A DNA stretch of 24,178 nucleotides from a virus (taxonomy: Duplodnaviria > Caudoviricetes). The translations under genes and the position numbers were made by a program. The notes under the pieces were generated by a model that saw nothing but the letters and a program-made list of their open reading frames with translations, was not told the origin of the DNA and did not search any database. Shown here piece by piece: positions 3,908 through 23,896 of this stretch. Within the stretch, counting starts at the first letter, position 1, and the number at the start of each line of letters is the position of its first letter. The stretch covers positions 1 through 24,178 of IMG/VR virus record IMGVR_UViG_3300047375_000921; one strand, written 5' to 3'.

Positions 3908-3935
3908 ATTATAACAAATTTCTGCGATCTGTCAA
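3908..3935 (-). promoter_or_regulatory. Sigma70-type early promoter
   Basis: TTGACA-gatcgcagaaatttgt-TATAAT; 16-nt spacer, extended -10 TG. Confidence 0.85.
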
Positions 3936-4412: not shown

Positions 4413-4440
4413 ATTATAGCAAATTTTGAGGATCTGTCAA
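4413..4440 (-). promoter_or_regulatory. Sigma70-type early promoter
   Basis: TTGACA-gatcctcaaaatttgc-TATAAT; near-duplicate of 3908-3935 including the leader. Confidence 0.85.
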
Positions 4441-4511
4441 CCTTTTTTATGTGTGTAAGTCATTGATTATACAGTCATTCTGTAATCAGTTAACGTTCCT
4501 GTTAATGATGA

Positions 4512-4628
4512 TAAATAATTCTGTAACATAATTGTAACATTACAGTTGCAAAAACGTAACAGTGCCCTTTAGGGTTAAAGTTACATGCATTTGTAATACA
4601 GTTTGGTTACCAAATTAAGGAGAATAAA
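4512..4628 (+). promoter_or_regulatory. Late-type promoter (TAAATA) plus structured leader with 11-bp-phased GTAACA repeats
   Basis: TAAATA 4512-4517; GTAACA at 4523, 4534 and 4556, GTTGCA at 4545; nested inverted repeats 4540-4597; AAGGAG SD. Confidence 0.55.
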
Positions 4629-4760
4629 ATGGCGAATCCATTAGGAATAGTAGCCAGATTAACTCGTCCATTACGTGACACGGCATCTGACTACTTCGAA
4701 AAATTTGACTCTATAATGAAATCCGGACATATGGAAAACATATTGCCTCGAGTTTCATAA
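4629..4760 (+). CDS. 43-aa microprotein (MANPLGIVARLTRPLRDTASDYFEKFDSIMKSGHMENILPRVS)
   Basis: AAGGAG SD, its own promoter and a terminator directly downstream. Below the ORF-track cutoff. Confidence 0.75.
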   Translation: MANPLGIVARLTRPLRDTASDYFEKFDSIMKSGHMENILPRVS

Positions 4761-4772
4761 TTTAGTTGACAT

Positions 4773-4800
4773 AAAAAAAGGGCCTCAATGGCCCTTTTTT
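4773..4800. terminator. Bidirectional intrinsic terminator
   Basis: A7-GGGCC-tcaat-GGCCC-T6 between two convergent small genes. Confidence 0.9.
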
Positions 4801-4806
4801 GTTACC

Positions 4807-4971
4807 TTAAGGATAAAACGGATTATCTGTGATATACGCAGGCCATTCAGTGTCTACTTTCTTTTGTTTTTCAACATGCGGAAAGTGGTATAGTCTTGCC
4901 ATAGCCTTTTTATTCTTTAGGGTTCTTTTGATAGCACGTTTGAGTTGTGCTACTTCTTGATACTTAGTCAT
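4807..4971 (-). CDS. 54-aa basic protein under tandem glutamine riboswitch control
   Basis: Start MTKYQEVAQLKR with GGAG 5 nt upstream; the longer track start lies inside the aptamer. Confidence 0.8.
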   Translation of the reverse strand: MTKYQEVAQLKRAIKRTLKNKKAMARLYHFPHVEKQKKVDTEWPAYITDNPFYP

Positions 4972-4989
4972 GTCATCTCCAATAGAGAT

Positions 4990-5037
4990 GCGTTCCTTCG
5001 GCTTCATTGCCTACTTCCGTCTGTTTCCAGATGAACG
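4990..5037 (-). ncRNA. Glutamine riboswitch aptamer (glnA motif), copy 2
   Basis: CGUUC-A-UCUG(GAAA)CAGA-CGGAAGUA-GGC(AAUGAA)GCC-GAAG-GAACG-C; three-way junction with AGUA/GAA E-loop. Confidence 0.88.
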
Positions 5038-5044
5038 TAACAAT

Positions 5045-5093
5045 GCGTTCCTTCGTCTACTGACTACTTCCGTTCACTTAGAGTGAATGAACG
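5045..5093 (-). ncRNA. Glutamine riboswitch aptamer (glnA motif), copy 1
   Basis: CGUUC-A-UUCAC(UCUAA)GUGAA-CGGAAGUA-GUC(AGUA)GAC-GAAG-GAACG-C; core identical to copy 2, while P2 and P3 differ in sequence but still pair. Confidence 0.88.
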
Positions 5094-5114
5094 ATGTAAT
5101 TTGCATTACACAAA

Positions 5115-5120
5115 TATTTA
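5115..5120 (-). promoter_or_regulatory. Late-type promoter for the riboswitch transcript
   Basis: gaTAAATA, followed after 4 nt by the hairpin UGUAAU-GCAA-AUUACA (5095-5110). Confidence 0.6.
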
Positions 5121-5705
5121 TCATTTATAGTAAGCATTATCCTTGTTAGAGTGATCAGTAACATCTAATACACCCTTTAGCTCTGGTATGCTTTCAAGTA
5201 ATGTGTTCTCAACACCATGCTTTAGTGTTAGGTCCACTTGGGCACATCCTTGGCACCCACCACCAAAACTCAATACTGCTACATCGTCTTTGGTAATTTC
5301 TACAAGATTAACTTCTCCGCTGTGTGCGGCAAGTCCTGGGTTTACTTCATTCCACAATAGATAATTGACTTTGTCTTGTAATGTTGCATCTTCTCCCAAC
5401 TTAGTCATCTTGCTGTTTGGTGCTTTGATTGTTAGTGTACCTGACCCTAACTCTGTGTTGAAGTCTACTAATGCTTCTTCTAAAAACTTAATGCAGTCGT
5501 TGTGCAAATACACTGCAAGTTTACCATGCTCTTCGAGTGTTACATCTGCAGGTGGATTGTCTGCTTTCACGTATGTCAGTATGGTTTCTGCTTTAGGTGT
5601 TCCTGGGTTGTCCACAAACATCCTAACACCAATCGTGTTCTCTTGTTTTTCTAATAGGTTAACTAAAAAGTCTTGTGCAGATTCGCTGACTGTGATTGTA
5701 TTCAT
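5121..5705 (-). CDS. nfuA: Fe-S biogenesis carrier NfuA
   Basis: N-terminal degenerate A-type domain (NPGTP, LTIKAPN) and C-terminal Nfu domain (NPGLAAHSG, FGGGCQGC, DVTDH). Confidence 0.93.
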   Translation of the reverse strand: MNTITVSESAQDFLVNLLEKQENTIGVRMFVDNPGTPKAETILTYVKADNPPADVTLEEHGKLAVYLHNDCIKFLEEALVDFNTELGSGTLTIKAPNSKMTKLGEDATLQDKVNYLLWNEVNPGLAAHSGEVNLVEITKDDVAVLSFGGGCQGCAQVDLTLKHGVENTLLESIPELKGVLDVTDHSNKDNAYYK

Positions 5706-20339: not shown

Positions 20340-20741
20340 CTATTCTGAAGATTTGCCTTCCCAATCTTTAATTGCTTTTTTGATTGAGTCTTCTGCTAAC
20401 ACTGAACAGTGAATTTTAATTGGTGGTAAATCCAATGCCGCGGCAATATCTTTGTCTTTGATTTGCCTTGCTTCTTCCATTGTTTTACCTTTTAACATTT
20501 CTACAAACATAGTTGAACTTGCAATTGCACTACCGCAACCGTATGTTTTGAACATAACATCTTCTATGCGATCATTGTCATCAAGTTTAAGTTGTAGTCT
20601 CATTACATCACCACATGCTGGAGCACCGGTCATGCCAGTTGCTACCTTAGGATCAGTTGGATCAAACTTACCAACGTTAAACTTCTTAGGATTTGATAAT
20701 ACGCCTTTGAATCTTTTTGTTACTTCTTCTGAATATGCCAT
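20340..20741 (-). CDS. iscU: Fe-S scaffold IscU
   Basis: GAPACGDVM, FKTYGCGSAIAS, LPPIKIHCSVLAED. Confidence 0.95.
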   Translation of the reverse strand: MAYSEEVTKRFKGVLSNPKKFNVGKFDPTDPKVATGMTGAPACGDVMRLQLKLDDNDRIEDVMFKTYGCGSAIASSTMFVEMLKGKTMEEARQIKDKDIAAALDLPPIKIHCSVLAEDSIKKAIKDWEGKSSE

Positions 20742-20759
20742 AATGTTATTTATCTTTTT

Positions 20760-21977
20760 TTAATGCATGTATTCGTCCCAATCGAATGCGTCCATATCAA
20801 CACCGTCTTGGTACATGTCCCACAATGGGGATAGTTCTCTTAATTTCTCAACTACATCGAGCAACGTATCTGCTGTTTGGTCAATGTCTTCGAGCGTGGT
20901 TTGTCTTCCGAAACTGAATCGTATACTGCTGTGTGCTAACTCGTCTGCTCTGCCTAATGCACGTAATACATAACTTGGTTCAAGTGTTGCACTTGTACAT
21001 GCACTACCGCTACTAACAGCAACATTTTCTAAAGCCATAATCAAACTTTCGCCTTCAATAAAGTTAAAACTGACATTTAAAATGTTTTTAACTTTGTGAT
21101 CAAGACTGCCGTTTAAGTATACTTCCTCAACTTCTTTAACTCTTTCTAACAAACGATCATGTAACATACCTACATGAGCTTTGTCTTGTTCGAATCGCTC
21201 TTGGGCAATTCTGTATGCTTCCCCCATTCCTACAATTTGATGTGTAGGAAGTGTGCCACTCCTATTTCCTCTTTCGTGTCCACCACCATGCATTTGTGCT
21301 CTGATTCTTGCACGTGGCTTACGTCGAATATACAATGCACCTACGCCTTTTGGGCCATATGTTTTATGTGCTGATAAACTCATTAAATGTACAGGAAGTT
21401 CTGCTAAGTTTATTTCTACTTTGCCTGTGGCCTGAGCCGCATCCACATGGAACATAATTTTCTTATCAAAGCATAACTTACCAATACCTTCTATGTCGTT
21501 AAGTGTACCAAGTTCATTATTGATAAACATAATACTTACAAGTATTGTATCTTCTCTGATTGCTTCAGCAATCATGTCTGCTGTGATTATACCATCTTCG
21601 TTAGGTTCAAGATATGTAATCTCAAATCCATCACGTTCAAGTTCTCTGCAAGGATCAAGTACTGCTTTGTGTTCAATCTTACTTGTGACAATGTGTTTAC
21701 CATTTGTTTCGTAAAATTGTGCTGTACCTTTGATAGCAAGATTATCTGCTTCAGTGGCACCGCTGGTGAATACAATTTCTCTTGGGTCAGCACCAATAAG
21801 GTCTGCTACTTGTTGTCTTGCTGTGTCAATTGCTTGATCAGCCTCCCAACCGAAACTGTGACTTCTACTTGCAGGGTTTCCAAACTCGCCGTCAAATGTG
21901 AGGAATTTGGTCATTAACTCTGCAACATTTGGGTCGCAGGGTGTAGTTGATGCGTAATCTAAGTATATTCTTTTCAT
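20760..21977 (-). CDS. iscS: Cysteine desulfurase IscS
   Basis: [27 protein letters not shown] (PLP Lys), SSGSACTS (catalytic Cys), LSPLWDM tail. Confidence 0.97.
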
Positions 21978-22686: not shown

Positions 22687-23462
22687 ATTATTTTGTCATT
22701 TAACCATCTTGCAAACCATTCGTGACCACTTTCACTTAGGTGTGACGCATCATCGGGGGAATGTTGTATTTGACTCCACATTGATATTAATTCAGGGTGT
22801 GTTGCTATATCCTTGCCTTCTCTAAATAAACGTGTGAGTCCCATCTTTTCAAAATTATCTGGATGAAAATAACTGTGTGGGTGGAGAACTGTGTAACGTA
22901 TGTTTTTACTTTCAAGGAATGACATAAGCATAGCAAGTCTGGTCCAAGTAATATAAGTATCAGCAGTGATATCCACTGTTGCTTCTTCTATGCTTTTTTG
23001 AACCAGCTCATCCGTTTTGTTTTCTTGCCACGTCCAACTGTGCATTTTAAAACGGCCCCACCTAAAATCTTTTACTGTGTTATCTACAAGATCATTCAAT
23101 GGCATACTGTCCCAAGGATGTATGGCTTTAATGTTAGGATTGCTTTCTACTGGTGTTTCTTGTTGTGTAATGAATACACTGTGATCAAATGTTGTTTTGC
23201 CAATTCTTGTGTGCGTTAAATAATTTGAGAATACTTCTTTTCTTTCAGGTGATGTAAGTTGAATAATTACATGATCGTTTTCATTAATCTTATTTAATAA
23301 AACGTTTGTAACTATTAATCGCATACTGCGATCATTACTGCCACATCCACCTGCAAGATGTAAATAGTCTATATTTAATAATTTTGATAAATGGTCGCCG
23401 TAGCACTCTTCTACAAGTGTTCTGTCAGAAAAACTGCAACCTGCTACAACCAGTTTGGGCAC
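22677..23462 (-). CDS. SGNH/GDSL-like hydrolase-fold protein
   Basis: GCSFS, LAGGCGSN, T.PER, DASHL...GH. Confidence 0.65.
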   Translation of the reverse strand: MPKLVVAGCSFSDRTLVEECYGDHLSKLLNIDYLHLAGGCGSNDRSMRLIVTNVLLNKINENDHVIIQLTSPERKEVFSNYLTHTRIGKTTFDHSVFITQQETPVESNPNIKAIHPWDSMPLNDLVDNTVKDFRWGRFKMHSWTWQENKTDELVQKSIEEATVDITADTYITWTRLAMLMSFLESKNIRYTVLHPHSYFHPDNFEKMGLTRLFREGKDIATHPELISMWSQIQHSPDDASHLSESGHEWFARWLNDKIIWT

Positions 23463-23896
23463 TACGCAAAATCCTTCAACATCTTGCTAAGTTCTAATGC
23501 ATGTTGCTCCTCTTGGCCTATTTGTCCTCTGGCATATTCCTCAAGCATGATACTTGCATCCGCTACTTCCATTAGCAGTTCTTTGTATTTTCCTACAGCA
23601 CGTACTTCGTGTTCTAAACTTTCAGTGAGTATTTGATTAACACTGTGATCGTGATTTTCTTCTATCTTTGCAATTTTCTGACTTGGGTGTCCACCAAATC
23701 CTGTGATGTATTCGCCTGCTTGTAAGGCATGTGCTAAACTTTCGTTTGCCTGTTCCTGTAGGAATGCTACAATAGGTATCCTGTTAGGACCGCTAATCAT
23801 TAATGAACTGTGTGCATACCTTACCACACCAGCCATTTCCAATTCAACTATTTCATTTAATAGTTCGCATACTTTCTGTGTGTTTAATTCTCTCAT
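23462..23896 (-). CDS. Bacterioferritin/ferritin-like protein
   Basis: Four-helix ferritin pattern ELE...Y, ESLAH, GGHP, LEHE...Y, EEQH. Confidence 0.85.
   Translation of the reverse strand: MRELNTQKVCELLNEIVELEMAGVVRYAHSSLMISGPNRIPIVAFLQEQANESLAHALQAGEYITGFGGHPSQKIAKIEENHDHSVNQILTESLEHEVRAVGKYKELLMEVADASIMLEEYARGQIGQEEQHALELSKMLKDFA

Follow-up and report, generated by a model that had tools for sequence, protein, structure and literature searches.

The window analysed here, a stretch of viral DNA of 24,178 bases, holds on its minus strand a compact cassette in which a pair of RNA aptamers precedes a short open reading frame (ORF). In the direction of transcription, a promoter-like element, a small 5' hairpin, aptamer 1, aptamer 2, a hairpin pairing the Shine-Dalgarno (SD) sequence, an ORF of 54 codons and a terminator-like hairpin follow one another. 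The cassette abuts an upstream nfuA-like gene (5705-5121) whose product carries NifU and Fe-S_biosyn domains.

Both aptamers were matched in Infernal searches with Rfam by RF01739 (glnA, the type-1 glutamine riboswitch or Glutamine-I), over the whole model (positions 1-53 of 53) and above its gathering score of 35. Aptamer 1 (5042-5095, minus strand; core 5093-5045) scored 60.4 bits (E 2.9e-11) and aptamer 2 (4987-5039, minus strand; core 5037-4990) 59.4 bits (E 5.4e-11). The two are the sole Rfam matches within the 24 kb window, and their cores are separated by a linker of 7 nt (5044-5038, minus strand). The P1/P2/P3 junction, the conserved J2/3 and the 3' linchpin C that define RF01739 are all present, and the last conserved C of aptamer 2, C4990, maps in all likelihood to the linchpin C60. 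A first-pass annotation, made from the letters alone, had described two glnA-class copies 7 nt apart; the covariance-model check bears this out, and the tandem pair belongs almost certainly to the glnA class. In the alignment of the aptamer stems, 98.1% of 213 cells are paired and 20 cells show a two-sided change, a level reached in 0 of 500 shuffles, where row L025 is misaligned in P1/P2 and the aligned sequences are related, so that the shuffle counts are not probabilities. P2 and P3 of aptamer 2 covary across 12 relatives, and P1 never does. A hairpin between the two aptamers was considered as a mechanism of cooperativity and found unsupported for the window's leader, since the inter-aptamer pairing probability is 0.02 in the identical leader of L001; the mean over 31 leaders is 0.15. 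Aptamer 1 may sharpen or stabilise the response, yet it would be dispensable, because 4 of 31 viral relatives carry a single aptamer. In 34 of 45 phage and host leaders (L003-L040), a P2 arm holds an identical 14-nt sequence although the proteins are only 40-50% alike, which suggests recent exchange or an extra binding site; the window is without this sequence, which is therefore not essential.

The expression platform that follows is a hairpin at 4974-4990 (minus strand; -7.6 kcal/mol, z -3.2) in which the SD sequence GGAG (4980-4977) is paired. Its first base is C4990 itself, 19 nt 5' of the ATG, a placement in the leader befitting an expression platform. The earlier description of an SD-burying hairpin sharing the aptamer's final C stands in position and in the pairing of the SD; its shape of 6 pairs and a 5-nt loop does not, as RNAfold closes 7 pairs with a 3-nt loop. 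Among the distinct platforms displayed for the small-protein family, the hairpin begins at the first C in 24 of 24, and a 12-sequence alignment shows two-sided changes at 3 of 6 pairs with 98.6% of the cells paired. A wider viral sample comprised 120 loci with an aptamer core, in 105 of which both P1 strand and SD were recognised (9 and 6 were dropped), giving 87 distinct platforms; 58 of these pair the first C and the SD together, compared with 35.5 ± 2.9 (maximum 44) after the 5' arms were swapped. In the ligand-free ensembles of 31 tandem leaders, the C is held in the SD hairpin with a mean probability of 0.97.

According to the structural work summarised in passages of PMC11477058, glutamine orders J2/3 so that G23 pairs with C60, the linchpin. 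The gifB leader of Synechocystis activates in vivo, and the relevant part of PMC6212724 (Klahn et al. 2018) postulates that the linchpin pairing melts the helix holding the gifB ribosome-binding site. Carried over from this published structure and reporter work, glutamine binding would pull C4990 into the G23-C60 linchpin pair, and the loss of this C would weaken the SD hairpin and let ribosomes load. In the nearest-neighbour model, freeing the C takes the window's hairpin from -7.4 to -4.5 kcal/mol, a cost of 2.9 kcal/mol. With one or two bases freed the SD is still mostly paired in that model (unpaired probability at most 0.2), so that opening would depend on competition with the ribosome. 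The same residual pairing is what one would expect if the aptamers were real and the hairpin were unswitched by glutamine, serving constitutively low expression, control of RNA stability or an OFF switch, and a passage of PMC6212724 itself terms the mode of action unclear. Activation by the gifB leader in vivo argues against this alternative, as do the covariation of the hairpin and its start exactly at the linchpin C in all 24 platforms, and we find it scarcely plausible. Because the hairpin covaries and always begins at that C, the leader is very probably a translational ON switch responding to glutamine, the arrangement that had been proposed at first reading.

The promoter-like ATAAATA element (5115-5121, minus strand) overlaps the stop codon of the nfuA-like gene, and we take it to resemble the T4 late promoter. 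Such an element lies no more than 45 nt from aptamer 1 at 37 of the 39 viral loci and at none of the 6 chromosomal ones, and TAAATA is also found 5' of several other window genes. At the likely transcript start, folding gives a hairpin with a GNRA tetraloop (5095-5110, minus strand), which had been overlooked at first reading. It recurs in many relatives with altered stem letters and loop length, is missing from leaders in which just 6-11 nt separate promoter and aptamer, and is predicted to stabilise the RNA. An NtcA box at the same place (5110-5095), read by what we take to be its consensus, was dropped in favour of the RNA hairpin, as spacing and stem letters vary together. At the other end, a bidirectional intrinsic-terminator-like hairpin (4773-4800; -15.8 kcal/mol, z -3.1) is shared with a converging unit on the plus strand; it is not among the calls of a simple terminator scan, and a hairpin stands 3' of the stop codon in every relative displayed. 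Between the nfuA-like gene and the leader no terminator was found, and therefore read-through from that gene may also occur. The cassette had been presented as a stand-alone unit with its own promoter and terminator: both signals are there, and the possible read-through qualifies its independence. Contigs of four RNA runs (X2, X3, X9 and X10; 4 of 21 listed runs examined) span the cassette in whole or in part, and the X3 (4832-5151) and X9 (4827-5092) contigs are nearly confined to it; such contigs show neither strand nor level and may stem from DNA, and they give a weak hint of transcription.

Two neighbouring arrangements deserve description. The converging unit (4508-4760, plus strand) combines a 43-aa ORF and a leader of 110 nt with an ATAAATA at 4511 and a pair of TGTAAC repeats lying 11 bp apart, and searches of Rfam and Pfam gave no match for it. 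The repeats presumably resemble a PhoB/OmpR-type box. The 43-aa ORF recurs beside the cassette in L001, L002, L003, L005 and L019, and its leader also in L027 and L028. On the minus strand, two perfect sigma-70 promoters (12/12; 3908-3935 and 4413-4440) precede genes whose starts are almost the same, MYSLNK and MYRLNK, and which are probably early-gene cassettes.

The ORF (4971-4807, minus strand, ATG at 4971) encodes a basic protein of 54 residues built from a helix, a variable linker and a near-invariant C-terminal motif, PxYITDNPFYP. AlphaFold2 predicts the helix at residues 3-27, with a pLDDT of 95 over residues 1-20, and a low-confidence tail. A 66-aa ORF from an ATG at 5007 was rejected, as its start codon falls within aptamer 2 and the conserved stretch opens with Met 4971 (73 of 73 sequences, these having been chosen at family length). 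phmmer returned 18 matches, a profile of 29 sequences 132, and a library of 50% representatives 30, two of which are long proteins matching only partly. M1, T2, P44, Y46, N50, P51 and Y53 are invariant in the 73 aligned members, and the I, T, D, N, P and F codons of the motif vary synonymously among 36 distinct coding sequences; these two features together point to a specific binding partner. On comparative grounds the ORF is demonstrably under protein-level selection, and its product constitutes a real family without a name. Pfam, PHROGs and NCBIfam hold no family for it and the ESM Atlas no usable match. The PDB sequence search gave a best E of 0.67, Foldseek against viral models a best E of 6.8 (a single helix being uninformative), and tblastn and blastn against GenBank phages found none. 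An arrest peptide (Pro-stop) and an HbYX tail were also weighed as possible readings; the final Pro is missing in some relatives.

A recount of charges reproduced the figures of the first-pass annotation, 12 K/R against 5 D/E, and the K/R count is 10-13 in all 33 family rows tabulated. R12 is the sole conserved arginine (67/73), the other basic columns mixing K and R, and the best-kept part of the family is the neutral aromatic tail, not the charges. Side-chain nitrogen reaches 0.51 per residue against 0.33 for 19 window genes, as might be expected if the product were mainly a nitrogen sink. Alternatively, the peptide could be secondary and the transcript a glutamine-controlled RNA decoy that captures, for instance, a regulator acting at the start region of glnII: in carrier genomes the 5' end of the ORF is similar to that of host glnII, and at the DNA level the final Tyr codon, the Pro codon and the stop hardly vary (36/36, 34/36 and 34/36) and form a short palindrome with the next bases (4810-4817 in the window, and in relatives). 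Neither sink nor decoy accounts for a motif kept through synonymous changes and for seven positions invariant in 73 sequences, and we consider both very unlikely.

In IMG/VR, 33 loci of the small protein were collected, 32 of them scanned with Rfam and one (L033) by a pattern search, which gave two cores. The aptamer is kept in 31 of the 32 scanned relatives (27 tandem, 4 single), the remaining one, L026, being cut by a contig end. In the SAR86-type order to which genome G001 belongs, the gene occurs in 8 of 251 genomes. Seven of these eight chromosomal loci have tandem aptamers and the same SD hairpin, and the eighth is cut at the gene start, beside ilv and pssA-like genes (named by eye). The homolog check proposed at first reading was thus run, and riboswitch and ORF proved to be co-conserved in viruses and chromosomes alike, the exceptions being loci cut by contig ends. 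By this comparison the cassette is demonstrably a mobile unit, the ORF travelling with its leader among large T4-like phages and SAR86-type chromosomes. In viruses it occupies about 12 gene neighbourhoods, by our reading of upstream neighbour types, and the upstream neighbours include two divergent major head proteins and a single-strand binding protein.

This distribution bears on whether the protein could serve the phage programme, in lysis timing, as a protease adaptor or at an assembly checkpoint, with the chromosomal copies as phage-derived passengers. Most known copies are viral, they often lie 3' of capsid or other phage genes and behind the late-type promoter motif, and PMC9004378 speculates, in the part concerned, on glutamine-timed lysis in the phage Melnitz. 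The chromosomal copies are rare, four are near a tRNA gene, and the five distinct chromosomal proteins form one branch (93/92) of a tree of 53 columns which, with 14 of 30 inner branches open, gives no direction of phage-host transfer. The chromosomal copies are nevertheless intact and stand among host genes; they keep the whole leader and the motif, and the six loci with a complete ORF have a terminator-like hairpin and have lost ATAAATA. The viral neighbourhood, moreover, is not fixed. The presence of the cassette on bacterial chromosomes weakens a purely phage-timing role, and we regard a phage-programme function as decidedly unlikely.

The same type of leader is found before many other small ORFs. 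In a set that includes some chromosomal loci, the distinct small proteins behind it number 110 and fall into 17 clusters; 106 have a positive net charge, without shared sequence. Some 1300 IMG/VR stretches hold the aptamer core, as estimated from 7 of 64 parts. One leader gating so many unrelated small proteins argues for a general nitrogen-status gate in phages. Consistent positive charge is also what a ribosome- or RNA-binding factor would show, and the 54-aa protein, small and very basic in all 33 rows, might tune translation when amino acids are plentiful, with the switch as described; a 55-aa cyanobacterial ribosome-associated protein affects C/N metabolism (PMC13640635, in part). Searches of Pfam, NCBIfam and PDB, however, matched no ribosomal or RNA-binding family, and the neutral aromatic tail is better kept than the charges, so that such a function appears unlikely, if less so than the phage-programme one.

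Several further small proteins were seen behind these aptamers. Those of marine viruses (L043-L162) include YRG-repeat peptides, all with covarying SD hairpins. On SAR86-type chromosomes, other small ORFs behind ON-type hairpins (L214-L228) comprise a family ending FFPYYL, YRG-repeat peptides and a 71-aa protein, and the ORF of L219 is a distant relative of the small-protein family (E 3.7e-6 in a small set).

The phage is likely large or jumbo, because contigs bearing relatives of the small protein reach 322 kb; one structural gene of the window is nearest to those of large phages of Salicola and Caulobacter, at 32-37% identity. A domain search found many host-type genes in this virus record, including MetK, ClpS, Hsp20, peroxiredoxin, IscS/IscU-type and ferritin-like genes. 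Among them is an Fe-S assembly set (NfuA-like, IscU and IscS-type) with a ferritin-like gene, at 5121-5705, 20340-21977 and 23462-23896 (minus strand). When the phage IscU was scored against 300 gammaproteobacterial genomes (three of them unpublished, with no part in the ranking), the top scores were 184 bits for G005 and 177 bits for G001, followed by 163. Both best genomes are members of the order in which the cassette also occurs, and a chromosomal homolog whose protein is identical to the L038 copy is named 'SAR86 cluster bacterium' by NCBI. From the IscU ranking and this name we infer a SAR86-type host; a passage of PMC5332604 uses the IscU argument for the host of another phage. A proteobacterial host, suggested at the outset by the look of the phage's other genes, is supported by the ranking and by the distribution of RF01739 in the class sample.

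Of 150 genomes of the SAR86-type order, 63 have RF01739 over the cut-off; a class-wide sample, also of 150 genomes, yielded one, G005, itself of this order. These counts firmly anchor the type-1 glutamine riboswitch in an abundant group of heterotrophs. PMC12379486 reports, in the passage concerned, RF01739 in SAR86 deletions. The best 30 chromosomal loci precede GS (glutamine synthetase), gltB (glutamate synthase), a porin-amtB pair and an ATP-grasp-type gene, all but GS being named by eye. Of the order's 150 genomes, which are incomplete, none gave a GlnE match and 113 gave a PII match. The common GS of the order is GlnII-like (364 bits, below the cut-off of 500; 55 of 61 genomes), its nearest solved structures being those of eukaryotic and type II enzymes; in some genomes a canonical GSI takes its place. 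Among 20 listed PII-negative genomes, 17 (G005, G009, G013, G017 and others) carry RF01739 over the cut-off, often 5' of GS or porin-amtB, and 17 more PII-negative genomes lie outside that list; in one SAR86-type lineage, riboswitches may have taken over from PII control. In L177, L188 and L189, a glutamate-synthase-like gene stands behind an ON-type SD hairpin, the leaders of GS and porin-amtB are longer, and these two leader types may switch in opposite directions.

In 7 of 8 carrier genomes (L196-L200, L234-L241) the GlnII-like GS begins with MTKYE, a start shared by the majority of the chromosomal small proteins; two of these have MTSYE instead, and the window protein has MTKYQ. The chance of such a shared N-terminus is about 5e-5, a rough product of background frequencies from 119 N-termini that is post hoc and comes from carriers mostly of one lineage. 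An unrelated ORF behind the same hairpin also has a similar start.

We propose that the small protein is an effector made only at high glutamine, which would damp host nitrogen assimilation, most likely by binding to GS. Its basic helix and aromatic C-terminal motif might dock, by our guess, on a conserved host protein, the likeliest target being the GlnII-like GS in a host group where GlnE was not found. The whole chain, from tandem aptamers through an ON switch to an effector in nitrogen metabolism, has in our estimate a probability of roughly 0.55. That the effector is a GS inhibitor is our best single guess, a tentative one that leans on analogy and indirect host evidence. Several observations bear on it. 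The window protein has no Pfam match at E 0.01 to IF7/IF17 or DUF4278 (PF14105), 1 of 73 members reaching E 0.15; an NCBIfam search for IF/DUF4278 gave none at a useful level, and profile-profile comparison with the YRG peptide clusters stayed below 3% probability. With R12 alone conserved, the three arginines of IF7/IF17 have no counterpart. Carried by just 8 of 251 genomes, the gene is not the regulator of GS for the order as a whole, and a leader shared by 17 clusters of unrelated proteins gives, taken alone, no reason to single out GS. In SAR11, host transcripts of glnA, gltBD and amt go up on phage infection (PMC12753301, in part), which fits poorly with a phage wanting GS off. The fullest version, in which SAR86 bacteria and their large phages have in common a small protein under glutamine control that shuts down GlnII-type GS in cells without GlnE, is more doubtful still. 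If true, it would bring to light an inactivating factor without precedent for type II GS or among viruses, extending a mode of control known only from cyanobacteria to another enzyme class and to phages, and the protein would be one of at least a dozen unrelated mini-protein families under glutamine control in marine phages.

The closest parallel is the gifB (IF17) riboswitch of Synechocystis, which is of the same aptamer family, gates a small protein and, in the relevant part of PMC6212724, has the equivalent of C60 (C68) at the start of the helix that holds the ribosome-binding site, as here. The cyanobacterial factors IF7 and IF17 act where GS is without adenylylation control, and IF7 needs three arginines (PMC6316151, in part); the lack of any GlnE among 150 genomes of the SAR86-type group is comparable. 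The differences are equally clear: the gifB leader has a single aptamer, whereas ours is tandem; our cassette is found in phage and gammaproteobacteria, whereas a passage of PMC6212724 calls the class exclusive to cyanobacterial genomes; and the product here has no significant DUF4278/IF match, the host GS being mostly GlnII-like and not GSI. IF7/IF17 and DUF4278 peptides are likewise small and basic, and those are made under nitrogen excess. The YRG tripeptide, a motif typical of DUF4278, is present in 19 of 73 family members and absent from the window's protein. Profile comparison nevertheless gives no significant match, one conserved arginine stands here against three there, and no counterpart of the C-terminal motif was found in DUF4278/IF proteins.

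The riboswitch class, its tandem form and its occurrence in phages are already published, and with the RNA class and its switching logic known the surprise is limited. Weinberg et al. 2010 (PMC2864571) described, in the passages concerned, the glnA RNA motif as marine, sometimes tandem, and 5' of genes for GS, glutamate synthase, an ammonium transporter and PII, a list that the SAR86-type chromosomal aptamers fit; those main-text passages make no mention of a 54-aa ORF family or a phage cassette. In the main texts of mostly open papers, we found neither the 54-aa family described nor a cassette common to SAR86 and phages. What the cassette offers is a compact, testable unit by which a virus could read host nitrogen status without a protein regulator, and a new conserved small protein as a handle for finding its partner.

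Buchholz et al. 2022 (PMC9004378) report, in the part concerned, glnA-class aptamers in marine phages including those of heterotrophs, namely Methylophilales phage Melnitz, Pelagibacter phage Mosig and Prochlorococcus phage AG-345-P14. They link the phage glutamine riboswitch to ssrA, whereas that of the window gates a 54-aa ORF. In Melnitz-2 (MZ577096.1, L264:901-1069), a single aptamer is followed on the same strand by an SD hairpin of the same type and an unannotated basic ORF of 32 aa, unrelated in sequence to the 54-aa protein, where GenBank annotates the opposite strand. Judged from this arrangement, the target of the Melnitz riboswitch is likely the 32-aa ORF, not ssrA.
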